From a virus (taxonomy: Duplodnaviria; Caudoviricetes), in the IMG/VR virus record IMGVR_UViG_3300011189_000013, positions 1 to 53,991 of that record: 53,991 nt of DNA; one strand, given 5' to 3'. Each line of letters opens with the position of its first letter. The first letter of the stretch is position 1. Below the pieces are notes generated by a model. It did no database searches, was not told the origin of the DNA, and saw nothing but the letters and a program-made list of their open reading frames with translations. The translations under genes were made by a program, and so were the position numbers. This document shows positions 1 to 25,478 of this stretch, in pieces.

Positions 1-109
1 CTTCGTCTTCGTCTTCGTCTTCTCCACATTCAGCAAGAATCGGTAATAGATCTCCCCGCATATGAGGGTTCTTATAGGCTACTCGAATCAATTCATCGTA
101 TAAAGACAT
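1..109 (-). CDS. Partial gene (5' end) for an acidic protein with the shared LIRxA..P.L..L.PIL leader; not in ORF track
   Basis: Manual translation from ATG at 109: MSLYDELIRVAYKNPHMRGDLLPILAECGEDEDEDE; GAGGA RBS at ~116-120; runs off the window. Confidence 0.8.
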   Translation of the reverse strand, partial: MSLYDELIRVAYKNPHMRGDLLPILAECGEDEDEDE

Positions 110-130
110 CAAAAGTCCTCTGTGTAAAGG

Positions 131-158
131 GTAAAAGGGGCGGATTTATCTCCGCCCC
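131..158 (-). terminator. Intrinsic terminator downstream of tail sheath gene
   Basis: GGGGCGGA-6nt-TCCGCCCC hairpin (137-158) followed on the minus strand by TTTT. Confidence 0.7.
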
Positions 159-166
159 TCACCTAA

Positions 167-3100
167 TTAGAAGCTACTGCTAGCTCCGATTGTATAAGTG
201 ATCGGGATATATTTCAGTGGGAAAATAGGCGCATAGAATGCGGACACCCGAAGAGACGTAGGATCATTGGGATCTGGCTCTGCTCGTACCCCTTGGAAAT
301 CTACGATGATCTGCTGCTGTACAAGAGAGTTCAACAACCCCGTCAGCGCCAGCTCCACGTCCTGCGATCGAGAAGAAAGGAACTTCAGACCAATAAAACG
401 ATCCAAAGTGTTCCGACTCTGCCGCTGTACATGGTCTTTGATCGCAATAATAGAAGGCGTTGAGGTGAATCTTGACTCCGTGTTAGTCGTAAGACCATCA
501 CGAACAACGAGACTCGTGCCTCTGTCTTCTAGAACAGTGATACCTGCACCGGCCAACTTGTTTTTGTCGATATCGTCGAGACTTCGATTCAATCGACGGA
601 ACCCTACCACTGTACGACGTGTAAGTGGAGTAGCCACATCAAACTGAGGGCTTACTTGTACACCTGCAAGAGCTGCCGCGATATATGTACCGTCCACAAT
701 GAAACTTCGATCGTCTCCCAGTGGATCAGTCAGGGTCACTACAGCACTGTCGGGATATACCAGAATAGCTCTCTCACTATTCAGTCCCTGCGCAATGGAT
801 CGGGCGTCTTTTGGTAGGGTACCCGAAGCTACCCCAAAGAGGCATCGCCGCTCTTGTCTATATCTCATGCTGGATTGGATCGAAGCATGATTTACGTAAG
901 CGCCCATTACCGATGGATCTGTGGTAAGAGGTACCAAAATATCCGGAACAATCCCAGCATCAAGAGGACGTCCCAGCTCTTCCAGAGCATCAAGGTATCT
1001 CCCAGCCGGAGCCTGTGCCCCACCTTCGGATTTGAGGACCTGTTTACAACCCACAACTACCGCGCCATTCAAAATAGCAAGGTAAGAGGCGAGAGTAAGA
1101 GGATTCTCTACCGAGAGTGATCCAAAATTTGCCTGAATATCACGGAATCTAGTGAAGAGCCTTGTAGAGAAATCGACCTTCTCATATTCATAAGAGATGT
1201 AGTAAAAATCTCCAATGCTAGGCTCTTGACCGTCTTTGTGATACGTGGTGACGATAGCCGTATCACCCTCTCCAAGGCCATTCTGTACTCCTGTATCATC
1301 TACAGTCATCTCAATGCCCGGAATAGCTCGTACACTCGTACCAGCTCCCGCTGTAAACACAGAACTTACATGAAGAGTGAAATACTCAGTGTCCGGGTAA
1401 TCGGAGACGAAAATTTCCTCTGCGCCGCCACCGACTGTAAACCGGAGTCCTGTGTTTGCATCTGTATAAGTCTGACCCACGACCCCGGAGCCGCTAGATC
1501 CAGTGCCCACGGGATTGGGAGATCCCAAATCATTGAGAGCAAAAGAGTCTACGTCAAATGCAGCAATCTCATCACTTCCACTAGTACTGTCTTCAGGATC
1601 AATTCCAAATCCCGTCATGTTGAGGGCGGAGGCCGTCCCATCTTCGAAAAGAAAAGACTGAGCTGATCCGGTACCAAAGGTAGCAAACTGAATGTAAGTG
1701 CCGTCTCCTAATACAGGGAACGCGCTTACAAAGGCCAGTGTTTCTGCCATATCAGTCCAGTCGACCAGCTGCTCATTGAGGGTAGCTGCCACTTCACCGG
1801 CAGTTGCCTGTCGTTGTGCAGCCTTATCACCTTTGGAGAAGCCGAGAGCCTCATTAGCAGTCCCATCTAGAATCTCGATGGAACTATCTTGGCTGTCATC
1901 GGAAGACGTAATTCTTATTGCCCCACTCACTTCTACAGCAGTTCCCGAAGTGATTTCAGTATCTATCTTTGTTACAATTGCAGCGAGGGCATCAGCGTCT
2001 GATAGAGCTACAGTATGTTCCGTGCCATTTAAGGTAAAGATGAAGTCCAGATCTTCTGTAAGGGGAGCTGTAACTGCATCTCCCAAAAGCGTAGCACCTT
2101 TATTTACAGCACTTTCGGAACCGGAAACAGAGACATTATCCACAAAGCCAAGGGTTTCATTAGCGTTACCCTCTAGGACCTTAATAGAAGTGATATCATC
2201 GGGACCAGTAGGCACTTCACGGGAGCGAATGATAAATCTAGCGGGACCATCAGCTTCGTCCCGGAAAAAAGCTACAGCATCACCAACACCAAGGGTGCTG
2301 GCCTCTACCGCATCATTAATCTCCCCTGCAATATCAGCTCCTGTAGTTAGGCCGGTAAGGTCGACTGATACTTCTTCCCCATCCACTTCGATAATGAACG
2401 TGTCATTATCTCCGGTGATAGAAAAAGGATCCCCATCGAGGGTGTCCGACACTAAGACGGCACGACCGGCGGCGGATAGATCAAGAGCAAGGGAAGGGGC
2501 CTCCAAAACCTCTACGTGGAGAGTATCACTCTCATTTTCGTGGAAGTCATAAGGAGCTACCTCACTATTTACGAAAATAGCCGGTTCCCCGGCCAAGGTC
2601 TTGAATCGAACCCGGACCGTCTCCTCAATACCAGATGTACCGGTGACAAAGGCGTCCAGATTGGTGTTCGCTCCTGTTTTCCAATTGACATTTACGCTTG
2701 GGTCACTGAGAGCACCAAACCGAACATCGGAAAGGGCTCCGGCAAGAGTAGAGCTGGTTACCGAATAAGTGGTAGCAGACTCCGCCTTGACCGTAACCGT
2801 ATCATCCTGCAAACGGTTGTAGTAGTACGTTGCATAGATCTCGTGATCGGTGGGGATCGCCTCAGATAGAGTGACTCTACGTGTGGTAGGATCCACATTA
2901 TGTACTTCAACGGGACCACGATCTTGGGCTTCCGAGAGGGTGGAACCATGATAAATTTTCACTAGACCGGGACGGTAAGTGCTAACCGGGATACGATCAT
3001 TGGAAATTCGCTGAAAAAGATCAAGATCAAGATCAGTACTTCGACCGTTACCCAACGTCGGGGCCTGTCCAAGCACTACGATTTTGTTCGAAGTTTCGGA

Positions 3101-4402
3101 GGGTGTTACAGAACGATCAACCCAACGGTCCACTTCTTCGAGGAAAATACGATTGTCCACGAGGGACACATCAATTTGAGTTTCCCCAAAAACATCGCCG
3201 CCGGTGTGTTGCCCCGTTTCTACAGTAGCAGCCGATCCCCAAAGAAGTCTACCGTTAGCGTCTACAACATAGTCACTACCTTCTAGGAAATCTCGGCGTC
3301 CGGGACTGATACCCACGCGCGCCACATTTCGGATTCCAGTATCGGGAAGGTAATCAAAAGTGTCCTGCCACGTATTATGGAAATACTGTACTACGACAGT
3401 AGCACCCGCAACTGGTGCCTCAGATAAGGTTACAGCACCCGACTGACCATCAAGCTCCGTAGGGATTACTTGAGAACCATCTACATGCACCGTAATATCA
3501 GAGGGATCTGTAGTGGTAATACCACCATTAGTCCCGTCTACAATAGGTGCGTTATAAACGTAAAAGGTACGGTTACGCTGTGTTTTACTTCCAACCCGAA
3601 AACCTATAGAGTTGTTTGCAGTACCAGTCAGTACCTCAATAACCGCTTCGGATTCTAGCTGAATGAGATCATCACCCTGATTGTCTTGTACTACTGTAGC
3701 CCCAAAACCTGCGGCATTAATTGCGGCGTCTATCTCTCCCGCAACTTCAGCAGCCGTTCGAGTGCCTGTAGTTAAGGTGACCGGATACTCAACACCATCT
3801 ACCAAAAGATTGAGTGTTTCACTCCTCACAGAAATAGCGTAAGGCCCTTGGACAGTAGACAGAAGGATTGCTTTCCCATCTGTTACCTGCTCCGATACGT
3901 CGTCTTCAAATTCGGAATCTTCCCGATTGAAGAAATAAGTGACCCGAACATCCTCTCCGGGCTGGGGAGCAACTTGGAGTGTTATAATCCCACGCTCACC
4001 ATCAAGAGCCGCCGGTGATACTAAATTACCGTCTACCGTAACCGTGATCTTGGTTGTATCATTGGTTACAATACCACGACCGTCTCCAGATACAATAGGG
4101 AAATTCTTGACTTGGAATCGAGATTCGGCCCCAGTCTTAGTCCCCAGCTCAGGGTTGTCCCGGTTGCTGAAATCGAGAACGAATAGATCGTTCACGTTTT
4201 CATTGACGATTCTCTGATCCACCGAAGCAGAAGAACCTCTCACCATTTCGAAATCGTCACGGGCCAGCGTTTCACGGCCCGTACCTACGAAAATGGGGAT
4301 ACGATTCCCGGACGGAGGTCCAGTCGTATCATCTTCAACTTGCGTTCGGGAATAAGCTCCGGGGGGAGCGTAATTTTCAAATGGTCCAAATGATGATGCC
4401 AC
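167..4402 (-). CDS. Tail sheath protein with large insertion of repeated beta domains
   Basis: N-terminal YAPPGAY (sheath PGVY-like motif); C-terminal sheath domain (RAILVYPD, IAAALAG, LVVRDGLTT, YAPIFPLKYIPITY); 1411 aa. Confidence 0.9.
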   Translation of the reverse strand: MASSFGPFENYAPPGAYSRTQVEDDTTGPPSGNRIPIFVGTGRETLARDDFEMVRGSSASVDQRIVNENVNDLFVLDFSNRDNPELGTKTGAESRFQVKNFPIVSGDGRGIVTNDTTKITVTVDGNLVSPAALDGERGIITLQVAPQPGEDVRVTYFFNREDSEFEDDVSEQVTDGKAILLSTVQGPYAISVRSETLNLLVDGVEYPVTLTTGTRTAAEVAGEIDAAINAAGFGATVVQDNQGDDLIQLESEAVIEVLTGTANNSIGFRVGSKTQRNRTFYVYNAPIVDGTNGGITTTDPSDITVHVDGSQVIPTELDGQSGAVTLSEAPVAGATVVVQYFHNTWQDTFDYLPDTGIRNVARVGISPGRRDFLEGSDYVVDANGRLLWGSAATVETGQHTGGDVFGETQIDVSLVDNRIFLEEVDRWVDRSVTPSETSNKIVVLGQAPTLGNGRSTDLDLDLFQRISNDRIPVSTYRPGLVKIYHGSTLSEAQDRGPVEVHNVDPTTRRVTLSEAIPTDHEIYATYYYNRLQDDTVTVKAESATTYSVTSSTLAGALSDVRFGALSDPSVNVNWKTGANTNLDAFVTGTSGIEETVRVRFKTLAGEPAIFVNSEVAPYDFHENESDTLHVEVLEAPSLALDLSAAGRAVLVSDTLDGDPFSITGDNDTFIIEVDGEEVSVDLTGLTTGADIAGEINDAVEASTLGVGDAVAFFRDEADGPARFIIRSREVPTGPDDITSIKVLEGNANETLGFVDNVSVSGSESAVNKGATLLGDAVTAPLTEDLDFIFTLNGTEHTVALSDADALAAIVTKIDTEITSGTAVEVSGAIRITSSDDSQDSSIEILDGTANEALGFSKGDKAAQRQATAGEVAATLNEQLVDWTDMAETLAFVSAFPVLGDGTYIQFATFGTGSAQSFLFEDGTASALNMTGFGIDPEDSTSGSDEIAAFDVDSFALNDLGSPNPVGTGSSGSGVVGQTYTDANTGLRFTVGGGAEEIFVSDYPDTEYFTLHVSSVFTAGAGTSVRAIPGIEMTVDDTGVQNGLGEGDTAIVTTYHKDGQEPSIGDFYYISYEYEKVDFSTRLFTRFRDIQANFGSLSVENPLTLASYLAILNGAVVVGCKQVLKSEGGAQAPAGRYLDALEELGRPLDAGIVPDILVPLTTDPSVMGAYVNHASIQSSMRYRQERRCLFGVASGTLPKDARSIAQGLNSERAILVYPDSAVVTLTDPLGDDRSFIVDGTYIAAALAGVQVSPQFDVATPLTRRTVVGFRRLNRSLDDIDKNKLAGAGITVLEDRGTSLVVRDGLTTNTESRFTSTPSIIAIKDHVQRQSRNTLDRFIGLKFLSSRSQDVELALTGLLNSLVQQQIIVDFQGVRAEPDPNDPTSLRVSAFYAPIFPLKYIPITYTIGASSSF

Positions 4403-4457
4403 GACGAACCTCGCCTATTATCTGTTCTAGGATCTGCGACTGATCATAGAAACCAAT

Positions 4458-4474
4458 TATCAATAAATTACCGA
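4458..4474 (-). promoter_or_regulatory. Putative late promoter motif upstream of sheath
   Basis: Minus strand TCGGTAATTTATTGATA, matches recurrent intergenic motif. Confidence 0.55.
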
Positions 4475-4475
4475 C

Positions 4476-4904: not shown

Positions 4905-4931
4905 ACTACTCCTTATCTACCTGTTGCATCA

Positions 4932-4948
4932 TATAAAGGGATTAGCGA
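4932..4948 (-). promoter_or_regulatory. Putative late promoter motif
   Basis: Minus strand TCGCTAATCCCTTTATA; includes the stop codon of the upstream gene. Confidence 0.65.
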
Positions 4949-6776: not shown

Positions 6777-7202
6777 TTACCTCAAATAAGCCATCCCATT
6801 AGGCCCCGCTGCTCCTACCCCAAAATCAGAATCGAAAATATTGGAGCGTGCATGGCGTGCGGGCTTTTTCCACGAGGCGGCTTTCAGAACATCGCCTGTT
6901 TCCGTATCAATGAAAGCATAGGCTGATCTAGAAGACTTCTCAGTCTTTGCTATACGAAGATAGCGCCTACCACCTGTGATTTCTAAGACAGGAACTCCCA
7001 GTGGAAAATCTTTGTAATGCTCAGTTACAATTTTCTGAGCACCACGAATAAAGCCCTGTACTGCACGATCAAATTTTGCGGGATCTTCCGACCTACTCAT
7101 TCTTGCGGTTTTGCAAACGCTATCTAAAATAGGACGAAGATGTTGTTGTAAACTGGGCTCTTGGGCTCCCAGCTTGACTAGCTGCTCTTTAAATTTGGAC
7201 AT
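6777..7202 (-). CDS. Small protein with LVKLG leader fused to a widespread phage domain (AFID..TGDVLKAASWKKPA)
   Basis: Leader QLVKLGAQEPSLQQHLRPIL followed by KTA; C-terminal motif recognised as common in phage hypothetical proteins. Confidence 0.7.
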   Translation of the reverse strand: MSKFKEQLVKLGAQEPSLQQHLRPILDSVCKTARMSRSEDPAKFDRAVQGFIRGAQKIVTEHYKDFPLGVPVLEITGGRRYLRIAKTEKSSRSAYAFIDTETGDVLKAASWKKPARHARSNIFDSDFGVGAAGPNGMAYLR

Positions 7203-7211: not shown

Positions 7212-8189
7212 TTAGATGCCATACATATTTTTGATATCTTCGGCAGCCTCTTCCAACAGCCTCTTAGACGTCGCCTTAGCAAACTCAGAAGCCATTGTAC
7301 GCATGTTCAAATATGACTCAAACTTGTCCATAAGATCCCCACCACGGTCCCGTGACGAAACCTCAACAGGCAAATCGTGCATTCGAGCGATGTGCTCGAA
7401 ATTCTCACGAGTTTCGTGCCCACCTACATACTGCATAAGATTGGACAGGGCTTCCTCGTCACCTAATGCTCTTACAACCTCTTCCCACTTGCGCCACGCA
7501 GAAGCGGTTCGTGGGCTCGCTTGCACTGAGGACTCTTTTACAAGAGTTATGCCTCTTTCAAGTAGCTGCTTTACTTTTGCGCCGGGCAAGGGTCCCAAAG
7601 CATCACTTTCCATAACTCCCATTCCTGTGGGAGCTTTAATGGCTTTGTACCCTCTATCACGAAGGCGATTCCAACGCGGCCCTAGTACTCCGGCAGCGAT
7701 ATCATCGGGATTACCCGGATCGTATGCAATCTTATCCAAAATCTCTTTTAGATGTGGCTGGAGGTGGGGCTGCTTAGCACCAAGGCGAATTAGCTGTTGC
7801 TTAATGTTTGACATAGACCTTTTCCTTTGCTGTTGACGTTTTTTGATCTCTTCCAGTGTAAGCTTTGGCTTACTGGGGCTTTTAGGACTTCGCGGAACTC
7901 TTCTACCACCTTGCAACTCACCTTGCAACTCAGCTTTCATATCTACGTATAAAGACCGCAAGAGGTCCTTTTGCGATTGCCGTAGACTGGTATCATTCCA
8001 GTACACCTGATTGAGTATCTCTAGTGCCCGGTCTGCCGAAGCTCTTGGGATTTCCCCCCCGCCTTTGGCATTCCTCAAAAAAGTATCCAGTGTCCTATTA
8101 GAAATAAACTGGAGAACCTTAGTGAGGCGGCGGGTGCATTTGGGGGAAACCGTCACAAAACGGCCACCTCTGGAAATTCTTAAAAGCAT
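7212..8189 (-). CDS. Hypothetical protein with internal LIRLG leader (possible internal start at 7814)
   Basis: ORF; MSNIKQQLIRLGAKQPHLQPHLKEILDKIA at an internal ATG preceded by AAAGG. Confidence 0.65.
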   Translation of the reverse strand: MLLRISRGGRFVTVSPKCTRRLTKVLQFISNRTLDTFLRNAKGGGEIPRASADRALEILNQVYWNDTSLRQSQKDLLRSLYVDMKAELQGELQGGRRVPRSPKSPSKPKLTLEEIKKRQQQRKRSMSNIKQQLIRLGAKQPHLQPHLKEILDKIAYDPGNPDDIAAGVLGPRWNRLRDRGYKAIKAPTGMGVMESDALGPLPGAKVKQLLERGITLVKESSVQASPRTASAWRKWEEVVRALGDEEALSNLMQYVGGHETRENFEHIARMHDLPVEVSSRDRGGDLMDKFESYLNMRTMASEFAKATSKRLLEEAAEDIKNMYGI

Positions 8190-8190: not shown

Positions 8191-9390
8191 TCACTCGTAT
8201 TCAGCTAGAGACTGAACCAAAAGACCTTGAGCTACTGAAGTCATAGGATCTTCGGCTTGTCTGATTTCACTGATCTCAATTGGGAATCTCTTTCGCTGCC
8301 GCTCAAAAACCTCTTTGAAAAGGTCTAAGAATCCACCGGCTAAAGAGGTCCCTCCTGATACGATAATCGGAATCGCCTCTTGCAGCTCGGTATCACTCTG
8401 CGTCTGTTTGAACTTCTTGGAAATATTATCAAGAGCGTATTTGATTAGGCTTTTGTAATAAACGACGAGCGCCTCTTCATCTCGCGTCTTAGGGGCCATC
8501 AAATCAATGCCACGCTCTTTTACGGCACATAGACGTGAGGCAGTAGAGCCTACGGCTTTAGATGCGTGAGCATCAATCCAGTCGCCTCCACGCTGCACAC
8601 TAAACTCCAAAATAGGCATCGTCATGTAAGAGAGGGCTACGTTAGTCATCCCCGACCCAAAGGAGACTCCGATCCCACTAAAAGATTCGGCGGCGCACTC
8701 ACTATAGATAATAGCCATAGCTTCATTGCCGGAAATAGGGTCGTACCCCAACTCCTCTAGGATCTGACCGAAAACCGCTTCGTGATACACAACATCTTGA
8801 TCTGGATTATCAAGAGGTACAGCGGGGATGGAATAGTAGCAAATCTCACCCTCTTCTTGGGGTTTGCCTACCACCTGTTCAATGAGAATCGACAAGACTT
8901 CCAGAGCGTCAATCTCCGAAGATGAGATCAAGCCTTTAGAGAGAGGACGGCGCACTTCTTTTTTGAGCAACTGTGCAAGCTCCAATGCGGTGTCTCCGAG
9001 AATTAGTAGCTGATCCTCGTACTCCACGTAGGACGTGCCACGGAGATTCAACATCTTTTTCCGCTCTGCGTCTACATCCAGAAAAGCATCTCGCACTCTT
9101 TTGGTTTCAATCGATCCGCCTACTTTTCGTGCAGATACCAGATTCATCGTACCTACATCCAAACCTACACCCAACTGCGCCCGGTCTTCACTCATAACTT
9201 TACTCCCGTCTTCTGTACTATCAGAACTAATTAAACCACTATCAGACCCATTTTTGAGTCCGTATTCTTTCACCCGCTTTGAGATGGTAGTAGGGCTGCA
9301 TTCGTACTGCTCCGCAAGTTCTGTGTAGGTGGCCCCCGCTCGAAGGGCTTTTTCAAGCGCCTCTTTCGGTATGTTCACTCGTCGGACCAC
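8191..9390 (-). CDS. Actin-like ATPase (MreB/ParM/FtsA fold) with N-terminal HTH
   Basis: Phosphate-1 GLDVGT, phosphate-2 SFGSGMTN, GGDWID, adenosine IIVSGGTS; N-terminal ATYTELAEQYECSPTTISKRVKEYGL. Confidence 0.85.
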   Translation of the reverse strand: MVRRVNIPKEALEKALRAGATYTELAEQYECSPTTISKRVKEYGLKNGSDSGLISSDSTEDGSKVMSEDRAQLGVGLDVGTMNLVSARKVGGSIETKRVRDAFLDVDAERKKMLNLRGTSYVEYEDQLLILGDTALELAQLLKKEVRRPLSKGLISSSEIDALEVLSILIEQVVGKPQEEGEICYYSIPAVPLDNPDQDVVYHEAVFGQILEELGYDPISGNEAMAIIYSECAAESFSGIGVSFGSGMTNVALSYMTMPILEFSVQRGGDWIDAHASKAVGSTASRLCAVKERGIDLMAPKTRDEEALVVYYKSLIKYALDNISKKFKQTQSDTELQEAIPIIVSGGTSLAGGFLDLFKEVFERQRKRFPIEISEIRQAEDPMTSVAQGLLVQSLAEYE

Positions 9391-9498: not shown

Positions 9499-10683
9499 TC
9501 AGGCTTTGAGCATGTCTCGCACGGCTTCTGTGAGGGAAGCCGCATTCAAGCGTAATGTGGGCTCTTCTAAAAGCAAATCACGGGCAATCACCATTATTTT
9601 TCGGATCTCAGGCCCCTGAAACCCAAACTCGTCGATCAGTTCTTTCGTGTCTAACAACCGGCCCGGCTGTTTCAAGAGGTCTACGAAAACAGAAGATTCT
9701 TTATCTCCCAACTCGACGGAAACCGCACGGAGACGAGTCATCTGCATCTTATCTAGAAAACGTATGCGCCGGTTTAGAGGGAGGCCGTAATCCATCATAT
9801 CGAATAGAAAGAGAATACGAGAATCTCTCGCAGACCAATTCACCATCGTCTGTCGGAAAGCCTTGTCCTCTTCCAACATTTCCGACAGCACTGCGAGAAG
9901 TCCTAATTCCTTTAGGACTTTGAGTGTAGTTTTAGACTGACTCATATTCAGGATGTCGTCTACCAGAATAGTAGCGATAGCATTCTGGGGCGCATTTTTG
10001 AGTTTACCTGCATTTCGCACAATTGACTCCGCTACGATAGGATCAATATGGAATCCATATTTGACCATAAATTTCACGGATCGTAGCATCCTTGTCGGGT
10101 CGTCAGAAAAAGTTTTATCAGGGTCTGAGGGGCAGCGCATAACACCCTCTTGGAGGTCAGATAGGCCACACCCTGTAAGATCTATAATCTTCGCTTTATC
10201 CGGCCCCTGTGCAAGCTGTGATAGCTGCCACATGAGCGTATTAAAAGTAAACTCCCTACGCTTTATGTCCTGCGCTATAGGAGCGATCTCAACTTCGTGT
10301 GGTTTGTATCCCTTCCCCCCTTCCCCCCCGTAAGACTCTTCCCGGCCATTTGCAATTTCAATAACCTCACCCTGTAACTCTTGCCCATCTACCTCCCACG
10401 ACTCGTGGATAGTGAAAATAGCAACACCGTACTGGTTCGTTTGAAGTGCGGTATGTACTGGAATTGTGGACGCCAACTCTTCTGCAAACCAAGCTGAGTC
10501 CCTACCTTCTCCCAGTGTTGCCGCATCTATTACGATATCAATATCTTTGATGGGCTGGTCGATCACAAAATTACGCACAGCTCCCCCAACCACGTAAACG
10601 TGGTCCCCTACATCCAGTTGGGCTGCAACCCCCGATAGGAAACGCATTAGGGCAATAGATTTTTTGTGGGCTTGGTTGGACAA
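9499..10683 (-). CDS. Class II tRNA nucleotidyltransferase (CCA-adding)/poly(A) polymerase family
   Basis: YVVGGAVRN, KDIDI, DIKRREFTFN, D.TG.GL.DL, FSDDPTRMLRSVKF motifs. Confidence 0.88.
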   Translation of the reverse strand: MSNQAHKKSIALMRFLSGVAAQLDVGDHVYVVGGAVRNFVIDQPIKDIDIVIDAATLGEGRDSAWFAEELASTIPVHTALQTNQYGVAIFTIHESWEVDGQELQGEVIEIANGREESYGGEGGKGYKPHEVEIAPIAQDIKRREFTFNTLMWQLSQLAQGPDKAKIIDLTGCGLSDLQEGVMRCPSDPDKTFSDDPTRMLRSVKFMVKYGFHIDPIVAESIVRNAGKLKNAPQNAIATILVDDILNMSQSKTTLKVLKELGLLAVLSEMLEEDKAFRQTMVNWSARDSRILFLFDMMDYGLPLNRRIRFLDKMQMTRLRAVSVELGDKESSVFVDLLKQPGRLLDTKELIDEFGFQGPEIRKIMVIARDLLLEEPTLRLNAASLTEAVRDMLKA

Positions 10684-10934
10684 TATACACGCTCGGAAGC
10701 TAGACGAGTTTTTTCTCGATAGTAAAAAGCACCATCATGATAGGTCAATTCACCCATATTTACAAGTGTCTCAATAACATCCCCCATCAGTTCCGAATCC
10801 CCTGCCATAGCATCTACCAACTCATCAAACTGGTCCAGTGCTACATCCATATGGGACGCATCCACTTTTCGACTCCCGTAACCAATGAGTCCTCGTATAT
10901 ACTGTGCAGCTACTCTTTTAGCTAGATTATTCAT
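10647..10934 (-). CDS. Hypothetical protein with LAKRVAAQY leader
   Basis: ORF tightly packed in the operon; shared motif. Confidence 0.6.
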   Translation of the reverse strand: MNNLAKRVAAQYIRGLIGYGSRKVDASHMDVALDQFDELVDAMAGDSELMGDVIETLVNMGELTYHDGAFYYREKTRLASERVYCPTKPTKNLLP

Positions 10935-13254: not shown

Positions 13255-13840
13255 AACCACTTACCAATTTCTGGAGGTTAATTGAATAGTCTTCAACCTG
13301 AATTGTAACGAGGGCCTTAATGCTACTCGTACGCACTCCATCACTAATTGTAGATATAATGGGGGTACGGTGAGGGAGATTGCGGTACATCGTTGTGAGA
13401 CGATATAGAGGCTCTAAATGAGCATTATAATCATCCCATGACAGATCAATAAAAACTACGTCCGGATACCACCCTCTCAACCCGGAGTCAGCCTCCGCTA
13501 CTGAATAGTACCTGTTTAAGGGGTTGGGATCAAGTGCTGACACACCACTCAACATCGCAGGGTCGTGGGTGATCACCGCAACCTGTAGATCCTCATAACC
13601 ATCTAAGAATTGGAGAATTGCCGAGGTATGTCCTTTACCTCTACCAAAGGATACGTGCAGGGCTCCATCTCTCTCATATACAACTTCCCTATCAGCCCAT
13701 ATCTTTTTACCGCGTACATAGGACTCGAACAGGGCTTCTATTAAATTAGTAGCATTGTTCGTCGGATCCCACTCTATTCGGCTTATAATCCCACGGTAAA
13801 AAATCACAAAGACTAACTCCCTCCTGAGATATTTTCCCAA
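13223..13840 (-). CDS. Degenerate P-loop (terminase-ATPase-like) protein, paralog B
   Basis: SFGRGKGHT and LRGWYPDVVFID motifs; start uncertain. Confidence 0.5.
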   Translation of the reverse strand: MGKYLRRELVFVIFYRGIISRIEWDPTNNATNLIEALFESYVRGKKIWADREVVYERDGALHVSFGRGKGHTSAILQFLDGYEDLQVAVITHDPAMLSGVSALDPNPLNRYYSVAEADSGLRGWYPDVVFIDLSWDDYNAHLEPLYRLTTMYRNLPHRTPIISTISDGVRTSSIKALVTIQVEDYSINLQKLVSGYGISKKYIAI

Positions 13841-15144
13841 ACAGCAGTTCGTCCACTCTCTTGAACTCCGGCGGAGCCTTCCGTCCCTGTGATCTGAGGG
13901 TACCTTAGCTCATCGGGCTCATCATCCCAGTCCATCGTTCTAGTCTCAGGGAAGGCCAACCCATCTGTCCCGAGTATTGGCACCTCGTGACGAATATCAT
14001 TACTGGCCAAAAGGTTTACATCAAAATGCTGTTGCAGCACCGAACCTCTATTAGTAGGTACAGACACAGGCCCTATGGAATATCTATCTCCATTGAGTTT
14101 TACAATGAAGTCCCGTTGGGATAGCAAAGGACGCGGACCCGTCCAGACGTCATAATTTTTAGCGTGCTCTCGTCCCCAGCTACTTTGCTGAGAAGATCTT
14201 TTCGAATTGGGAGGGGCTAGTAAAATCTCATAGGGACCCTCGTAGCCTCCCCTAATGCCAGTACCAAAACACACACCGCATTGGTTATAGGGATGGGGGT
14301 CAGAAGTCCTCCGGTGACACCCACAGGGCACTCCACGGTACTTGTGGATGAATAGCTTAACGCGCTCCCCACCTTGATCTAGTATCCACCTGTTCCGCCT
14401 AATAGCCTCTTCCCAGATATAGTCAAGATTCTCATTCTGGTGAATATGAGCAGCCTCCGACCAATTCAAGGGCGTCTCTTTTAGTTCCCCATCCCAAGAT
14501 GAGTAACCTACTGTGGTGATCCTATAGAAAGTCCGGCGGTGCAGGGCACTCTCTATTGTGTTCGTCCGGTAGCTATAAGAGCACAAGACTACGGAATCCG
14601 GACGAGGTAAAATAGCGTCGATACGCTCGTTAGAGGCCACGTCATAAGTGGGTTGAGTTTGCAGGTAGATCTCCCCCGTCTCTCCTATAACACGAAGCGG
14701 CTTTACCTGCTCCCCGTCAATTGTAATAGTTATGTCATGGATGCTATTAGCAATAACCCCAGAATCCGCAGGTCTAATAAGCGGGTAATTTTCCACCCGG
14801 AATACCCAGCCCCCAGACTCATCATCGGTAGATAGAAAACGTGAAGATACATCTTCGCCACTCACCACAGCTACAGTGGTTTGATCTCGATAAAACTGCG
14901 CCCCTATTGGAAAATCAGTGAGACGGTGGTAAGGACCATACTCGGAATCAAATGACCGATAGATGTTTACCCCTATAATATCAAAGCCCGTATTAGTGGG
15001 GAGTAGGGATGGGTCTTCCCAATATAGATCAACCGCGTCCTCTTCTGCTGAATATGACCACTGGGCATTCACATTCATAGGAGGGTTGGGATGCGTCGGA
15101 TTCTGACGCTCCTTGGTTTTGGTCTTTCTATCCCGATTAACCAT
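13813..15144 (-). CDS. Putative neck/head-closure protein with FN3-like N-terminus and zinc finger
   Basis: PPMNV..VDLYW..GVNIYRS (FN3-like); CGC..CGVCFGTG..GGY; P.LSQRDFIV...RYSI. Confidence 0.6.
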   Translation of the reverse strand: MVNRDRKTKTKERQNPTHPNPPMNVNAQWSYSAEEDAVDLYWEDPSLLPTNTGFDIIGVNIYRSFDSEYGPYHRLTDFPIGAQFYRDQTTVAVVSGEDVSSRFLSTDDESGGWVFRVENYPLIRPADSGVIANSIHDITITIDGEQVKPLRVIGETGEIYLQTQPTYDVASNERIDAILPRPDSVVLCSYSYRTNTIESALHRRTFYRITTVGYSSWDGELKETPLNWSEAAHIHQNENLDYIWEEAIRRNRWILDQGGERVKLFIHKYRGVPCGCHRRTSDPHPYNQCGVCFGTGIRGGYEGPYEILLAPPNSKRSSQQSSWGREHAKNYDVWTGPRPLLSQRDFIVKLNGDRYSIGPVSVPTNRGSVLQQHFDVNLLASNDIRHEVPILGTDGLAFPETRTMDWDDEPDELRYPQITGTEGSAGVQESGRTAVWENISGGS

Positions 15145-15153: not shown

Positions 15154-15600
15154 TTAAATCATTGCTAGGAGTTCTCGGACCATACCATCGGCGTTGGCCT
15201 CTATCGTCTGAGTGCTCTCATCCCACGTCTTTCTGTTGTTGCTGAGCTTAAAAGTAGCAGTACGGATGAAAGCGTGATAGGTATCTCGCATCTCTAAAAT
15301 AACGTTCCGTACGAAAGGGTCGGTGGGATCTCCCCATTTCACCACGAGATATACCTCGGGATCCATTGAGTCCCCACGCCCCAGACCGGAATCTGCAATT
15401 TGATATTCGATATAATCATCATATTTTCTACGAGCCGCAGCCGGGACTTCCCGCTCTAGGCGCTTTTTAATTTCCCTAGCTTGAGCACGTCCCGTATATT
15501 TACGAGCTACACGGGAACTCAATCTTAATTGATCTAGGACATTTCGAATATGGTTTCGCACTTTTCCCAGTTTTGTAAGTTGTTGTACTAAGTTGGACAT
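15154..15600 (-). CDS. Hypothetical protein carrying both shared leader motifs
   Basis: MSNLVQQLTKLGKVRNHIRNVLDQLRLSSRVARKY; start reassigned to ATG 15600. Confidence 0.65.
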   Translation of the reverse strand: MSNLVQQLTKLGKVRNHIRNVLDQLRLSSRVARKYTGRAQAREIKKRLEREVPAAARRKYDDYIEYQIADSGLGRGDSMDPEVYLVVKWGDPTDPFVRNVILEMRDTYHAFIRTATFKLSNNRKTWDESTQTIEANADGMVRELLAMI

Positions 15601-15653
15601 TAGAAAGGGCTCCACTAAAAAAGGGTACAGTAGTTTACCTACCATACCCTTTA

Positions 15654-17066: not shown

Positions 17067-17861
17067 TCAGTAGGTCCAAGGGACCATAACAGTTTTCACC
17101 TTAAAAGATTTTAGAGCCTTAGAGACAAGGGCTCGGGCCATTCTTTCGATGTCCTCAGATTGGTATTTGAGGCTATCCCGAAACAGCACTTTATCCTGAG
17201 CATCTAGACCGTCTACTACCACCAATGTAAGACTTTTTGCTCCCGGTGTCACTCCCGTAAAGGAAAACATAATGGGATCTCGATCCGCATGGGACACTGA
17301 AAAGTGAACCATTGACCAACCCTCGGCAGCCTCTACCAAGCGTACCTTAAAAGGTTGAAGAGTCCGGGCCATCATAGATTCCAGCGCCTTTGCTCGTTGC
17401 TGAAAATCCGGATTGGCTTGTCTCATTTCAGCTAGGATGGGGCGAATATGAGGACGTAAGTCTTTACGCACTTTACCCAAACGTACTAGGTGTTCTTCTA
17501 AGGGCTCAGAAAGTTTTGAAGAGCGTAAGGAAGAAAGGGAAGAGTTTTTATTATTTTTCATAGCACTCACTATTGAGAGGATGGCGGGATGGTTCTCAAG
17601 GGATTTTAGGACCCCTTGATAGGGTCCAATAGGGGTAGGATCCGGACCTAAATAATCATCCCACCAAAATACAGAACCTTTTTCTATACGAACAACTCTT
17701 GCGTCGGTTAGTTCATCTAACAGATCTTGGGCGACCTTATTGCTAATAGGCTGAATCCCATCTCGCAAAAGATCGGAAGCTAGTTGTGATATACGAAGAC
17801 TACCATGACCCGTATAAGCATCTATCAACCCTTGCACTTCGTATCGAGATTTTTTTAGCAC
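17067..17861 (-). CDS. Hypothetical protein with internal LVRLG motif
   Basis: HLVRLGKVRKDLRPHIRPILAEMRQA. Confidence 0.6.
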   Translation of the reverse strand: MLKKSRYEVQGLIDAYTGHGSLRISQLASDLLRDGIQPISNKVAQDLLDELTDARVVRIEKGSVFWWDDYLGPDPTPIGPYQGVLKSLENHPAILSIVSAMKNNKNSSLSSLRSSKLSEPLEEHLVRLGKVRKDLRPHIRPILAEMRQANPDFQQRAKALESMMARTLQPFKVRLVEAAEGWSMVHFSVSHADRDPIMFSFTGVTPGAKSLTLVVVDGLDAQDKVLFRDSLKYQSEDIERMARALVSKALKSFKVKTVMVPWTY

Positions 17862-18128: not shown

Positions 18129-18536
18129 TCACACAATAACTAGCTCAAAATGAAAGCTATAATCAGCGAGCCCCTTACCCTTCTTAACCTCATAGGACCG
18201 TGCATTCAATTTCTCGGAGATAAGGAAAGCTAAGTCCGCTGCGACGGCACTATCCGTGACGGGCCTTTCTGCACCCATACTCTCGGGCATTACATCTACC
18301 CTCAACTCAATTTTCTTTTTACCGAGGTCAAGATCGGCAAGACTGACGCCCACCATATACCCTCTCCTCCCCAGAATTCGATTCATCATTGCTTCGGTCT
18401 TACGGTCGACCTTTGCAGTCTTTACCGCAGACACACGGGAAGACTCTCGAAGATGCGCTAGGACAGGGCGAATATAGGGACGAAGATCTTTTCTACTCTT
18501 GCCTAGCTGTACTAGCTTTGCTTCTATATTGGACAT
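18129..18536 (-). CDS. Hypothetical protein with LVQLG leader
   Basis: MSNIEAKLVQLGKSRKDLRPYIRPVLAHL...VKTA; AAAGGA RBS. Confidence 0.7.
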   Translation of the reverse strand: MSNIEAKLVQLGKSRKDLRPYIRPVLAHLRESSRVSAVKTAKVDRKTEAMMNRILGRRGYMVGVSLADLDLGKKKIELRVDVMPESMGAERPVTDSAVAADLAFLISEKLNARSYEVKKGKGLADYSFHFELVIV

Positions 18537-21059: not shown

Positions 21060-21062
21060 ATC

Positions 21063-21449: not shown

Positions 21450-21931
21450 TTCAACCTCCGTAACTTCTGTATGTAAGTAGCACCGACCTTTCGAGCTATC
21501 GTTAGCATGGTCGGATCAAAAATCCCCCGGTGTGGTCGGACCACAGGGAGATCTAATAACGTACCAAAATACTTATCAGAAAGCACCTCTTTTGCCAACG
21601 CCTTTGCTCTAGCTTTACAAGAGCAAGCTTGTTGTGCTATGGACTCCGCCTCGGCCTTGATCTCGTAAAACCGAAAAGACGCCTCTAAAAGTTCCTCTTC
21701 TGAGCATTCCAACTCTTCTAGCAATATCGGTAGATCCTCATTACGACTTAGTATAGCATCAACAATTTCTTCCACATTCTCTAAAAGTTCCGCCGTAAGC
21801 TGAAAATTTCTTGCCAGCTCGTACACCTTATTAGCGAATGGGGTTATGCCTGATTGCTTTTTCATCGCCGGGTATCCATATCGAAATAAATCCCTTTTGC
21901 TTCCTGCAAAGCCGCATATACATGTTTGCAT
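21446..21931 (-). CDS. Hypothetical protein with C-terminal ARKVGATY motif
   Basis: ORF; start uncertain. Confidence 0.5.
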   Translation of the reverse strand: MQTCICGFAGSKRDLFRYGYPAMKKQSGITPFANKVYELARNFQLTAELLENVEEIVDAILSRNEDLPILLEELECSEEELLEASFRFYEIKAEAESIAQQACSCKARAKALAKEVLSDKYFGTLLDLPVVRPHRGIFDPTMLTIARKVGATYIQKLRRLK

Positions 21932-22368
21932 ACATAATTATGCTTCTGAGGATCTCTGATATCTGGTGAAGCCAAAGTACCAATAGGATATTCTTCTGCA
22001 TACAGATATCCGCCTTCCTTCGCATGGTGCTCGGCACCTCCATAGCGCCAATGTCGACACGAACAGGATACCAAAACATCGGACTTCCAGTACTGGTTCT
22101 CTTTGCCTTCTGGGACCGCTCTAATCATTACGGTGTACTGAGATCGGGTCTTACCCTTCACCGTATACTCCAATTGGTTTATCGACGGATTATGGCGGAC
22201 ATTCAATAAATTAACATCTGAGGCCCTCTCCACAATCGCGGGATTGAGTCCCGACAATATCTCCTCTGGGGTCTTTGCCACCTTATAGGTGCGACTAAGG
22301 GCCACACGAAGGGGATAATGCCGCAGTCGATATTGAGCTATAACTCTATGTACTAGCCTATTTTTCAT
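21862..22368 (-). CDS. SWIM zinc-finger protein with RVIAQY leader
   Basis: Y.V.I...SCSCRHW...CKHVYAAL. Confidence 0.75.
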   Translation of the reverse strand: MKNRLVHRVIAQYRLRHYPLRVALSRTYKVAKTPEEILSGLNPAIVERASDVNLLNVRHNPSINQLEYTVKGKTRSQYTVMIRAVPEGKENQYWKSDVLVSCSCRHWRYGGAEHHAKEGGYLYAEEYPIGTLASPDIRDPQKHNYVCKHVYAALQEAKGIYFDMDTRR

Positions 22369-22607
22369 CTTCGAATAGCATCGTCTGAGACATTGGGAGT
22401 GATGTACCCAGTTCCGTGATCAGTCCAATCTGTGATCTCGTTCGGCAAAGGCTCTTTTAACTTATTTTCGGAATCCTCTTCCGCAGGACCTTCTCGATTC
22501 ACATAAGTGGGAAAACCAGCTAGGTCCTCTATGTCCGTACGAAAAGAGAGAAGCCTCTTTACGTAAGCAGAAGCTACCCTCTTTGCTAAAACTCTCCTAG
22601 AGGTCAT
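22365..22607 (-). CDS. Small protein with LAKRVASAY leader
   Basis: ATGA overlaps on both sides; shared motif. Confidence 0.65.
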   Translation of the reverse strand: MTSRRVLAKRVASAYVKRLLSFRTDIEDLAGFPTYVNREGPAEEDSENKLKEPLPNEITDWTDHGTGYITPNVSDDAIRR

Positions 22608-22933
22608 AGCTTCCCCTTCAAGGCTTTGTCTAGTTCTTTCCGCAACGCCGGGTTCAAATCATCCGCAGCTCCGGTAAGGGCCATCTTATCTAGGAGATAA
22701 GAAACCACAGCCATCTGCTCAAACATTCGATCGAGGGTGGTCTGATACGTATAAATCATATCACCACCATCTTTGTAGATTTCCTCTTGGTACTCGGAGC
22801 TGTCAATAAGATCAACCGCCCTTTCCGTAAGCCCCTGAATTTTAGATAGGTCTACCCTTACGGTAGAAACGGCTTTTAAGAGGTAATCACACAAGATGCG
22901 AGACATATGTTTTTTGGCAATTCTCTTGTGCAT
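22604..22933 (-). CDS. Hypothetical helical protein
   Basis: ORF; KRIAKKH variant leader. Confidence 0.6.
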   Translation of the reverse strand: MHKRIAKKHMSRILCDYLLKAVSTVRVDLSKIQGLTERAVDLIDSSEYQEEIYKDGGDMIYTYQTTLDRMFEQMAVVSYLLDKMALTGAADDLNPALRKELDKALKGKL

Positions 22934-22947
22934 ATCACATACCTATG

Positions 22948-22972
22948 AAGGGGACCCTTTCGGATCCCCCTC
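22948..22972 (-). other. GNRA-capped RNA hairpin between genes
   Basis: Minus strand GGGGATCC-GAAA-GGGTCCCC (one G-U pair); no clear U-tract. Confidence 0.55.
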
Positions 22973-22978
22973 TGACAA

Positions 22979-24091
22979 TTAACCGCCAAGGTTCAGATCC
23001 GGGAACTGAGATGCAATATGTACTTTCATCGCATCAGACTCTACTGCATACACAGTGCATACAAATAGAGGATTGGCATTCGTTTCCAAAGATTTGAGCT
23101 TGGTCTTCCAGTGCTGTCCAAAATCCCAATCGAAATTGGGCATCATCTGCCGGGCAAATGCCAGTCGAGATTCTTTATCTTCTACAGAGATCTCAGGAGT
23201 CACATACTCAGGAGCCTGTGGAACCTGTGGAGCCTGTTGAGGGGCCTGAGCCTGAGCCTGAGCCTGTTTTGTTACTTGCCCAACTACATCGGCACCATGA
23301 CCGTCCCAAATCCCTTCAGGAAGGTTTGACGCTGTTTGAGGTGTTGTGCCCGCAGCATTCTCTGAAATACCCTCAGTTCGGAACTGAATACCTTCACGGA
23401 CCTGTACCTGCTCTTGCGGAGCTTGCTGTTGTAGCTGCTGTTTCAATGCTGCAATCTCACGTTCCATTTTCTGCCGTTCAAGCTCTTGGAACTGCGCCAA
23501 CTTTGCATTGCTGTTGCCTTCCTGCGTAGCATTTTGGCTTACTTGATCTGTTCGGAACGAATCTTTAAGGGATTCGGATCCTGCTTTGGTCGTAAAACTC
23601 ACACCTCTAACCTCTTCCCCACCTTGAGGTTCCAGAACCATCTGATTTCGAAACCCAGCGGAAGGCGGACGATGTTGCGGTACCTGTTGCTGTTGTTGCT
23701 GTTGTTGCTGTACATGATGCTGTTGTGCATCTCGTTGCTCTCCACTACGAAAAGCCTGTACGCTACTTACTTCCCGATCTTCCTCGGCAATAGTAGCACG
23801 GGACGCCACTACATCTTTCTGTTGGGGAGTGGCCGCACTCATAGTAATATGAGCAGACTGAGGCTGGTACGGACCTGCTGTATTAATGCCCAACTCCTCC
23901 GTATCTACCAACCAACGGGCTTTGATCGCGGAACTCAGTTTCGGGAAATTGTACTCTTCTCCCTCAATAATAGCCACTGTACCGTTATACTCTACGACCG
24001 TGCCTTTATCAACGGCGATGCTCGTTTCCTTGTCTACACCGATGTTGATCTTTGCAGCAGCCACATAACTTCTAAACTCTTTATTCGCCAT
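22979..24091 (-). CDS. Gln-rich low-complexity protein
   Basis: Poly-Q (9 Q) tract, QAQAQA repeats, central coiled coil; GGAG RBS. Confidence 0.75.
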   Translation of the reverse strand: MANKEFRSYVAAAKINIGVDKETSIAVDKGTVVEYNGTVAIIEGEEYNFPKLSSAIKARWLVDTEELGINTAGPYQPQSAHITMSAATPQQKDVVASRATIAEEDREVSSVQAFRSGEQRDAQQHHVQQQQQQQQQVPQHRPPSAGFRNQMVLEPQGGEEVRGVSFTTKAGSESLKDSFRTDQVSQNATQEGNSNAKLAQFQELERQKMEREIAALKQQLQQQAPQEQVQVREGIQFRTEGISENAAGTTPQTASNLPEGIWDGHGADVVGQVTKQAQAQAQAPQQAPQVPQAPEYVTPEISVEDKESRLAFARQMMPNFDWDFGQHWKTKLKSLETNANPLFVCTVYAVESDAMKVHIASQFPDLNLGG

Positions 24092-24169
24092 ACCTTCAAC
24101 TCCTCATACCAGATTGGTTCCTAAACACCCGCCGCCCTAAGCCACGGGTAATGATATACCTATAGATCT

Positions 24170-24186
24170 CATAAAAGGATTACCGC
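24170..24186 (-). promoter_or_regulatory. Putative late promoter motif
   Basis: Minus strand GCGGTAATCCTTTTATG. Confidence 0.65.
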
Positions 24187-24209
24187 TTTTGCGTCGATAA
24201 AAAACATTT

Positions 24210-24238
24210 TTGACGAGGGTCCTACCTTGGGGTATAGT
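24210..24238 (+). promoter_or_regulatory. Sigma70-type (early) promoter
   Basis: TTGACG-17nt-TATAGT with upstream A/T tract, ahead of the only plus-strand genes. Confidence 0.8.
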
Positions 24239-24287
24239 TAAGTGAGCATGACGAAATGACAACAACTAAAGAACGAAAGGAAACGAC

Positions 24288-24719
24288 ATGAGCCTCCAAT
24301 ACGCATATGATACTTTTCGAAATAATCTGGGCCTTATTGCCCGTGATGAGGCTTCTGATTGCCCTTGTAGGGGTTATGGATGGATATCCAGCCCCTTTGA
24401 TACGCAACACAAATGTCCCCGTCACTTTGCGGGACAGCGGCATCCCGAAAGCGATGAGTACGCGCTCCCCGAAGTGGTTTTAGTTTCAAAGGTGGAAAAT
24501 GGGGAACAGGTTCCGGTGTATCAACTTCTGTTAACCATCGGACACTGTGGTTACGACGATGCCGAGGCGACCTTCATGCACTTCTATGAGTTCGATACAG
24601 AAGATAAAGCCAAAGCCTTTGGAGATAAAGTGGCCCTACGAGCTGATATTTCGAGCCGGGTCACCAACAACGAGTACTGGATGCTTATCCCGGAAGTGCC
24701 GACACGCGACGAAGAGTAA
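24288..24719 (+). CDS. Early hypothetical protein with CxCxGxGW..D..H.C..H motif
   Basis: GAAAGGA RBS; downstream of the sigma70 promoter. Confidence 0.75.
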   Translation: MSLQYAYDTFRNNLGLIARDEASDCPCRGYGWISSPFDTQHKCPRHFAGQRHPESDEYALPEVVLVSKVENGEQVPVYQLLLTIGHCGYDDAEATFMHFYEFDTEDKAKAFGDKVALRADISSRVTNNEYWMLIPEVPTRDEE

Positions 24720-24756
24720 AAAATCCCCCTTAATGCTTTACCAAGGATGGTACCTA

Positions 24757-25050
24757 ATGAATTTTATAGCCTACGAAATTTCTACCGACGACGAGGGGAT
24801 GCATTTCGTCTCCGCATTTGACTACAACAATCCCGAGCGGCAATTTGCACATTATGACCGATGCCATGAATACGGAAACGCTCTTGACCTCTGCAATGAT
24901 ATCTCGGAGGCTGACAGTTTCGGAAACGTCGAGGAAATCGAAGCATCGGGGGACTGGGAAGAGCTGTCATTTGATGGGTCTGAGATCTGCGAGGAAGCCT
25001 TGGACCAGACTCCCGACCTCTATGAACTACTAGCCCCTACCCGGTCTTAG
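24757..25050 (+). CDS. Early, highly acidic small protein
   Basis: Start reassigned to ATG 24757 (MNFIAYEIS) with AAGGA RBS. Confidence 0.65.
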   Translation: MNFIAYEISTDDEGMHFVSAFDYNNPERQFAHYDRCHEYGNALDLCNDISEADSFGNVEEIEASGDWEELSFDGSEICEEALDQTPDLYELLAPTRS

Positions 25051-25478
25051 GAGAGGTAAGCGACCACTTCAAAGTGGTCGGGCCTTAGCTCGGTCCAGCT
25101 AAAGTGAAGGACCGAGTTGGAGATAGCCTCCGGGCTAAACGGATCTGACGGGTTTGAAAAAGCAATACTCATTGGGACCGTGCCTTCGGGCTTCTGATAG
25201 GCAAAAGCTGAAAACACCTCGTCAGGCTCTATGCCAAAGTCCTCTAACACTCGAAAGGCTTTTGTGATGGCAGTGCCTACAGAACGGTACCGACCATTAC
25301 CGTCAAAGCCTGCTCTTTGGAGAGCAGCATTCGCACTTCTCCGCTCACTAGAGTCTAACTTTTGAGAAGCCGTCTTGAGATGATCCAAAACAGGGCGTAA
25401 GTGCTCTTGCAAATTTGGAATATCCGCCCCGATCCGAATAATATTCTCTACTAACCTGCTCTGTTTATATTTGCCCAT
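25047..25478 (-). CDS. Hypothetical protein with IIRIG leader
   Basis: LVENIIRIGADIPNLQEHLRPVLDHLKTA; AAGGAG RBS. Confidence 0.7.
   Translation of the reverse strand: MGKYKQSRLVENIIRIGADIPNLQEHLRPVLDHLKTASQKLDSSERRSANAALQRAGFDGNGRYRSVGTAITKAFRVLEDFGIEPDEVFSAFAYQKPEGTVPMSIAFSNPSDPFSPEAISNSVLHFSWTELRPDHFEVVAYLS

Follow-up and report, generated by a model that had tools for sequence, protein, structure and literature searches.

Judged from its sequence, the 53,991-nucleotide virus record IMGVR_UViG_3300011189_000013 (IMG/VR; Duplodnaviria, Caudoviricetes), analysed here in its entirety and referred to as the window, is part of the genome of an uncultured huge phage with Bacillus phage G as a relative; its CheckV completeness of 12% implies a genome of approximately 450 kb. 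Seven of its proteins carry a shared peptide of about 30 residues, predicted to form a two-helix hairpin, which we call the tag. We are highly confident that the tag is real, portable and under selection, and that it is undescribed in the sources searched. Our preferred reading, to which we give a probability of roughly one half, is that it would act as a portable docking tag for the prohead and would be clipped at K-x-A by a protease of the phage G gp19 type. We infer loading into the prohead, removal by the protease and injection from gene position, the motif at the junction behind the tag, the payloads of relatives and analogy.

A regular expression run on the six-frame translation of the window finds exactly seven copies, each within a long open frame of the minus strand; six are solid and one is decayed (carriers lettered A to G, Table 1). 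An initial annotation, made from the letters of the window, had proposed a shared motif on at least seven proteins, and its count stands: seven by the regular expression and six by an independent profile, with D as the decayed copy. A profile built from the window copies scores its own members at 48-65 bits, with copy D at 48 bits, and the next best segment at 9.8 bits; copy A reaches 48.7 bits in the profile scan of the window. As this test is circular, a second profile was built from 57 tags of other contigs only. Run against 1,222 six-frame segments, this foreign-only profile recovers six of the seven copies, with E-values from 1.3e-11 (carrier E, 39.9 bits) to 1.1e-5 (carrier G) and copy A at 34.1 bits (E 9e-10). 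Copy D is not significant with the foreign-only profile (E 2.3) and scored 9.2 bits (E 0.1) in the scan that gave copy A its 48.7 bits. It reads MSNLVQQLTKLGK----VRNHIRNVL...SSRVA after an internal ATG, and lacks four residues and both prolines. We regard it as a decayed copy because MSN...L.KLGK and the extension ...LR.SSRV are common to D and F.

Identical residue pairs between copies are written with different codons in 90 of 123 cases (73%), and nucleotide identity between the window copies is 37-68%, demonstrating that selection acts on the peptide and not on the DNA. The bodies of the six complete carriers have no pairwise similarity (best BLASTP E 0.022, over eight body segments at permissive settings), in agreement with the earlier description of the tagged proteins as unrelated. 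It is extremely improbable that there is no tag at all, and that the motif is instead the conserved N-terminal region of a single family of folded paralogues, a repeat at the DNA or RNA level such as a promoter or recombination site, or a product of chance. The likeness of D and F beyond the core (MSN..., ...LR.SSRV) does mean that some copies are recent paralogues, and several carriers begin MSN or MSK. The unrelated bodies speak against such an explanation, as do the differing codons, the foreign-only E-values down to 1e-11, a loop predicted between tag and body, and the DUF7717 domain, which is untagged in some proteins and tagged at one terminus or the other in others. The body of this domain is untagged in two proteins (P0286 and P0288), N-tagged in two others (carrier B and P0285) and followed by tags in a fifth (P0161). 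This bears out the proposal that the motif is a portable module, and contradicts the idea, named in the initial annotation as one that could refute it, that the motif belongs to one homologous folded domain. An untagged gene of the window (33311-32679) likewise has a tagged homologue in G003, a syntenic relative with a capsid protein 91% and a terminase large subunit (TerL) 82% identical to those of the window.

In the AlphaFold2 (AF2) model of carrier B, the tag is predicted to form helices at residues 2-14 and 16-29 (predicted local distance difference test, pLDDT, 70-76), followed by a loop at residues 30-40 and a body that combines one helix with a sheet of five strands (mean pLDDT 78; the input alignment had six rows). 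The order along this protein is tag, K31-T-A33, linker and DUF7717 body (residues 74-124). A natural 63-residue protein with two tags, P0277, was modelled from its single sequence as four helices, paired as H6-16/H18-29 and H37-50/H55-62 (pLDDT 85; predicted template modelling score, pTM, 0.63). The motif had first been given a length of about 22 residues, which falls short of the roughly 30 residues and two helices found here. Foldseek searches of the PDB with the models of P0277 and carrier B returned nothing at E <= 0.001, and no usable match to carrier F was found in the ESM Atlas.

The positions originally reported for the motif, among them 7202, 7814, 15600, 18536 and 25478, are correct as gene starts. 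A, B and F begin with the tag, G has it at residue 7, C and D carry it after an internal ATG, and in E it is internal. The internal ATG of carrier C lies at 7814 (MSNIKQQ...), with AAGGAAAAGG just upstream, and would yield an N-tagged protein of 201 residues. In both C and D the internal ATG has its own Shine-Dalgarno-like sequence, and the longest frames begin upstream (8189 and 15645). The tag of carrier E is truly internal, located between an N-terminal and a C-terminal domain with no Met nearby. Only 36 residues of the product of copy A are visible, its body lying outside the window. Three of the seven window tags are therefore N-terminal by the longest frame, and five if C and D are taken to begin at their internal ATGs. 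The description of the motif as an N-terminal leader is not strictly right; in relatives the tag is often internal, C-terminal or repeated with charged spacers.

The window-only profile finds ten copies, nearly all directly after Met, in LR745208.1, a 485-kb uncultured phage that is the nearest GenBank phage record; it keeps the tag though its TerL is only 43% identical to that of the window (capsid protein 78%). A word-based search returned metagenomic proteins with the tag on dissimilar bodies, and a degenerate DNA pattern matched 57 loci in 32 IMG/VR contigs of 12-536 kb. In prokaryotes (one genome for each of 185,579 species) the same pattern matched two places, one by chance and one real, the latter being a 17.6-kb contig of an Actinomycetota metagenome-assembled genome. 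Tags collected by the DNA pattern make up a 63-row alignment (A3), in which L7, L10, L17, R18, H20, P23 and L25 are nearly invariant. This invariance is partly ascertainment, since the collecting pattern fixed some of these residues; additional tag copies found in the flanks have the same core residues. Two subtypes are visible in the alignment, a G-type (sNLKdQLIKLGxxxKdLRPHIRPvLAeLKxA) and an A-type (TLRSKLIRLAHxNPxLRPHLLPLLK[TE]A). The A3 profile detects 15, 15, 16, 14, 10, 8, 10 and 11 tags in eight related records (94-536 kb). A search with it of 1.84 billion proteins, clustered at 50% identity, gave 3,943 matching representatives (E <= 0.001), of which 249 have E <= 1e-10. Scanning both the window and its relatives with a profile hidden Markov model, which had been proposed as a check, thus found the tag in both. 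Among 50,697 GenBank phage records, LR745208.1 is the only one with the tag. The tag region has no Pfam match in the window carriers and the 67, 38 and 121 relatives scanned, and no PHROG match in the carriers scanned. Four motif strings are absent from the literature searched, and a term search of a 2026 jumbo phage review does not return 'targeting sequence'. The tag is confined to an uncultured clade of huge phages related to phage G. In some of these relatives (L052, L024, L013 and G005:C1:255648-255707) the frame stops directly after the tag, or the tag is a mini-frame of 23-41 codons with its own ATG.

The tag is modular and position-independent. While 57 of 90 unique tags are N-terminal, the 338 tags in the 150 best representatives (a list biased towards multi-tag proteins) comprise 119 N-terminal, 43 C-terminal and 176 internal copies. 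All but two of the 149 matched best representatives hold two to five tags with charged spacers between them; 35% of the residues outside the tags are charged, and many of the proteins end ...LLPLLK, LLPLLR or LLPLLQD. The internal, C-terminal and repeated tags suggest that a docking or 'sticker' module is a better description than a simple cleavable signal. One possibility, which we consider unlikely, is that the sticker is homotypic: hairpins would bundle with each other, multi-tag proteins would form a network or condensate, with proteins of one tag as its clients. Direct binding to the capsid shell would not be involved in that case, and the network could be an inner body, an assembly factory or some other phage compartment, perhaps located in the cytoplasm. 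The common layout of stickers and spacers, many proteins having tags at both ends, is in line with this, as are the four-helix unit predicted for P0277 and a logic similar to that of the Rubisco-binding motif of EPYC1 and pyrenoid proteins. That AF2 model is of one chain, however, and the near invariance of R18, H20 and P23 suggests recognition of a specific surface as opposed to generic helix packing. The enrichment of tags among virion genes and the protease-type junction, both described below, also point to the head.

Following its invariant Leu, the tag continues as K-[ET]-A in the A-type and as A-E-L-K-x-A in the G-type. The [KR]xA triplets first noticed behind the window copies (KTA, KIA, RQA, KTA and KTA) were all found, in addition to RVA in D; copy A has none in its visible residues. 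In the form [KR]xA[SAGMT], the motif is present within ten residues of the tag end in 47 of 88 tags, compared with none of 86 control windows taken 40 residues further on, and the triplet is thus a conserved junction. A T4-like L/I-x-E site after the tag was dropped as a candidate, [LIVM]xE being nearby in only 29 of 90 tags.

The same motif is enriched in the putative scaffolding protein. The scaffold candidate of the window contains four K-x-A-(S/G) motifs, against 1.1 in composition-preserving shuffles (P 0.023), while its homologues in G003 and in the related record G004 contain 8 and 11, against 1.7 and 2.8 (P 0.001 and 0.0005, same null). The K-x-A sites are 3-5 times over-represented and fall at aligned columns across the three homologues, with one of them (RVKEA-G/S-S; RVKEAGS in the window) located just before a conserved C-terminal tail. 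Scaffolds are classical protease substrates. The protease encoded in the window aligns with phage G at gp19 (E 2e-19; 35% identity across 155 residues), and a PDB sequence search with it gave no match. We read the junction motif as the likely cutting site of this gp19-type protease. The possibility that the tag mimics a capsid-binding tail of the scaffold was rejected, the conserved tail (LSxLWDSAPDVSxVF) being unlike the tag; the scaffold string 'NQLGRVKEAG' faintly resembles the tag, and none of the profiles detected it. In phage G, similar K-x-A-S/A strings are present close to the ends of both the portal and protease gp19. Among its small head-module proteins, several start MKRLI.K.A; gp13, gp17 and gp38 begin MKRLI(S/K)K(T/A/S)... 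and gp20 begins MSKKISRLKKTA. Phage G is the one relative in culture, and these starts may represent a leader that is shorter but built on the same logic.

The interval from the capsid gene to the sheath gene contains every one of the seven window tags (binomial P 0.0097). In G003, the virion module holds 12 of 16 tags (P 0.0012), and tagged genes flank the capsid and protease genes in both G003 and LR745208.1. Carriers turn over faster than their surroundings: a homologue in G003 (E <= 1e-3, tags masked) was found for one of six carriers, compared with 24 of 32 untagged neighbours (Fisher P 0.012). The carrier in question is C, whose homologue is an N-tagged protein of 141 residues. The slot of carrier D is occupied in G003 by a tagged gene of 106 residues and that of carrier F by two tagged genes with unrelated bodies, while four tagged genes occupy the variable island that in the window holds carrier G, between a gene for a 370-residue protein and the capsid gene. 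Carrier E has no counterpart in G003. With the same slots tagged in both genomes and the bodies differing, conservation of the tag goes together with replacement of the payload.

The capsid protein is a candidate receptor, its strong sequence constraint being what would fit a hub. It is 78-91% identical in all nine tag-bearing records examined and is the most conserved protein of the clade (TerL 40-82% and protease 33-67% in comparison); its family comprises 1,884 clusters at E <= 1e-5. A complex prediction of the capsid protein (29-row alignment) with the tag (63-row alignment), in which the fold of the partner was uncertain and which was run without controls, scored 0.00 and was counted neither for nor against binding. 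An actin-like protein with an N-terminal helix-turn-helix is also encoded inside the virion module (8191-9390, minus strand; Volactin family PF25216, E 2e-77), with carrier C directly downstream. It is 55-69% conserved in most relatives, with an in-frame TAG in G005. As an obligatory partner of the tag it was rejected, given that G006, a complete genome of 536 kb, has eight tags and no actin homologue. It is decidedly unlikely that the tag addresses some other hub of this kind, be it the tail or baseplate (in the manner of leaders of extracellular contractile injection systems or type VI secretion systems), the actin-like filament of the phage, or a host or phage unfoldase or chaperone that would read it as a degron or adaptor. 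The neighbours of five of the seven window carriers are indeed tail and neck genes, the actin gene is immediately followed by carriers C and B, and a tagged gene is similarly placed in G001 and G003. Apart from the example of G006, tandem, internal and C-terminal tags would be unusual for degrons or secretion leaders, profile library scans identified no Clp or secretion component encoded in the window, and the junction motif is one that the tag has in common with the scaffold.

DUF7717 in carrier B is the one Pfam family among the seven window carriers. Payloads of relatives above the Pfam cut-off are ART-PolyVal, DUF7007, WLM metallopeptidase, RelA_SpoT, WGR, GNAT, pentapeptide repeats and DUF7717 again, with LPD1 below the cut-off (E 3.4e-4); the close relative G003 has a tagged Dps-like protein (PDB Dps E 7.6e-7, phrog_3636 E 7.7e-13). 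No MuF or portal family was found on the 7 + 67 + 38 + 121 carriers scanned. Iyer et al. (PMC5512222) describe several of these domains in polyvalent, MuF-fused or portal-fused phage proteins and predict that they are packaged in heads and injected, and the repertoire of the relatives overlaps the effector domains described there. As in the MuF- and portal-fused effectors of that study, relatives of the window phage have ART-PolyVal, RelA/SpoT, zincin, WGR and the sub-cut-off LPD1 (PMC5512222). As in the polyvalent proteins it covers, some carriers are multi-module chains and their genes lie among virion genes. Unlike the fusions it covers, the presumed anchor here is a 30-residue hairpin, one per module, with no MuF or portal domain (PMC5512222).

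Under the preferred reading of a docking tag for the prohead, the hairpin would bind a repeated site in the assembling prohead, which could be provided by the capsid protein on its inner face, by the acidic scaffold or core, or by the tags of other proteins. Proteins with one tag, including the seven of the window, would be recruited as cargo, while the multi-tag proteins of relatives, with their long charged spacers, would serve to cross-link the core or scaffold. Cleavage of the K/R-x-A junction behind the tag by the gp19-type prohead protease would follow, and the freed payload would stay in the head and exit with the DNA. A number of results weigh against this reading. Tags occur outside the virion module, with 4 of 16 in G003 and others at 226 and 275 kb in LR745208.1. 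The strict junction motif is missing from copy A and from 41 of 88 tags, and [KR]xA is a short string whose function as a protease site is presumed. Internal, C-terminal and tandem tags are ill-suited to a simple cleavable leader, and the scaffold carries a conserved tail of its own that is unlike the tag. No Pfam family was found at the thresholds used for 6 of 7 window carriers and for 61 of 67, 33 of 38 and 111 of 121 relatives; with most payloads being orphans, the effector flavour rests on few proteins, none of them from the window. Finally, no cultured phage among the 50,697 phage records carries the tag, and phage G and Tunturiibacter phage Tunturi_5 gave no tag matches at E <= 1.

The tag can be compared with several known systems. 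Phage T4 has a capsid targeting sequence (CTS) on the internal proteins IPI-III and Alt, which is removed by the prohead protease gp21. Like the CTS, the tag is a short peptide on unrelated, fast-evolving proteins of one phage, is usually N-terminal, and is followed by a short conserved junction that resembles scaffold sites; a prohead protease gene is nearby, and an ADP-ribosyltransferase is among the payloads (in a relative of the window phage). Unlike the CTS, which has about 10 residues, the tag has about 30 residues in two predicted helices and also occurs internally, C-terminally and in arrays with spacers. Its junction is K/R-x-A, as opposed to L/I-x-E. To our knowledge there is no sequence likeness between the two. 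The scaffolding protein gp8 of phage P22 has a C-terminal helix-turn-helix domain that binds the coat. The tag is likewise a basic helix-loop-helix of about 30 residues (as modelled in carrier B and P0277), in relatives it is found at the very end of long, charged and probably extended proteins, and it would dock inside an HK97-fold shell. In contrast to the gp8 domain, it is common to thousands of different proteins, mostly small globular payloads, and is mostly N-terminal, while the scaffold candidate of the window ends in a different conserved tail.

Encapsulin cargo-loading peptides are short, extended and mostly C-terminal. As with these, a portable peptide would direct cargo of various kinds into a shell of the HK97 fold, and G003 encodes a tagged Dps/ferritin-like protein. 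In contrast, the tag is predicted to be helical and is mostly N-terminal, and the shell is a tailed-phage capsid with portal, terminase, protease and sheath. In the carboxysome (CsoS2) and the pyrenoid (EPYC1 and the Rubisco-binding motif), linkers and clients have a common binding motif. The tag similarly occurs many times in spacer-rich linkers and once in diverse clients, a layout expected when a single receptor organises a compartment. Organism, receptor and motif all differ from those of EPYC1 and CsoS2, and the analogy is one of architecture only.

Table 1 Positions of the tag copies and of other features of the window.
Feature	Position	Strand	Details
Tag copy A (MSLYDELIRVAYKNPHMRGDLLPILAE...), A-type	20..109	minus	profile matches; gene runs past window start
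Carrier B, 141 aa	6777..7202	minus	tag residues 2-31 (nt 7110-7199)
Carrier C, long frame 325 aa	7212..8189	minus	tag residues 127-156 (nt 7722-7811)
Carrier D, decayed tag	15154..15645	minus	tag nt 15526-15597; internal ATG 15600
Carrier E, 264 aa	17067..17861	minus	tag residues 121-149 (nt 17415-17501)
Carrier F, 135 aa	18129..18536	minus	tag residues 2-31 (nt 18444-18533)
Carrier G, 143 aa	25047..25478	minus	tag residues 7-37 (nt 25368-25460), end K-T-A-S
Tail sheath, 1,411 residues	4402-167	minus	profile matches
Major capsid protein, HK97-type, phage G gp27 family	27842..28729	minus	PF05065, phrog_2522, PDB 6wkk
Putative scaffolding protein	29454..30467	minus	position, acidity, conserved C-terminal tail
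Prohead (head maturation) protease, phage G gp19 family	30662..32185	minus	phrog_18299 E 2.5e-15
Portal	37241-35472	minus	profile matches
TerL	39836-37845	minus	profile matches
Second shared peptide	10896-10919, 21470-21493, 22327-22350, 22560-22583	minus	
Second shared peptide, continued	26820-26843, 43798-43821, 44399-44422	minus	

The window also contains further shared peptides. A second one, [KR][KR]V[AG][AS]xY[LIVM], is terminal, at one end or the other, in seven additional small proteins (Table 1), in the variants KRVAAQYI, KRVASAYV, HRVIAQYR, KRVASEYM and KKVAASYL and, C-terminally, RKVASRYM and RKVGATYI; its regular expression has eight matches in four contigs, where 0.15 are expected from shuffles. 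A third module, (K/R)xA-MEF.S.EALKKYLK.HP.AD...H.VK, occurs behind the hairpin tag in 19 of the listed representatives. In the window it is located at 35164-35271, as residues ~70-105 of a 535-residue protein (35478-33871) directly downstream of the portal gene. Both in this protein and in its 1,097-residue homologue in G004, the module is preceded by a VAS.Y[LM].RA string and not by the hairpin tag.

The long frames of the window are on the minus strand throughout, with replication genes at the opposite end from the sheath. The capsid protein matches PDB 6wkk (E 1.4e-62) and is 40% identical to that of phage G by tblastn. Directly downstream of its gene, a 104-residue frame (27366-27677, minus) is a partial paralogue of the capsid protein, with 39% identity to residues 40-134 (E 5e-10). 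The profile match of the sheath is limited to residues 1057-1408; sheath and a 443-residue protein (13813-15144, minus) have a common DUF2460-like segment of 70 residues. No tRNA genes or Rfam families were found in the window, and a gene for a CCA-adding enzyme (tRNA nucleotidyltransferase; 9499-10683, minus) is placed in the middle of the virion module. The sole stretch of about 950 bases lacking a long minus-strand frame is 24091-25047, where plus-strand frames (24288-24719 and 24547-25050) occur in an otherwise one-stranded record and where searches for RNA families and tRNAs were negative.

Should the tag prove to be a capsid address, it would flag which orphan genes of these huge phages encode virion-borne and probably injected proteins, hint at how very large capsids organise their interior, and define the cutting code of the gp19-type protease. 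It would then also be a natural portable handle with which to load foreign proteins into large capsids. Irrespective of the receptor, the tag groups at least 3,943 protein clusters that lie outside every curated family. A broader and more tentative possibility is a clade-wide protein-sorting code, in which the hairpin would be read by a single prohead receptor, perhaps the capsid protein with its extreme conservation, while the core is built and a changing arsenal of enzymes and anti-defence proteins is loaded, cleaved and injected. Were this the case, these phages would possess a code for cargo delivery that can be programmed, and the tag would already serve as an index to natural payloads in the thousands.

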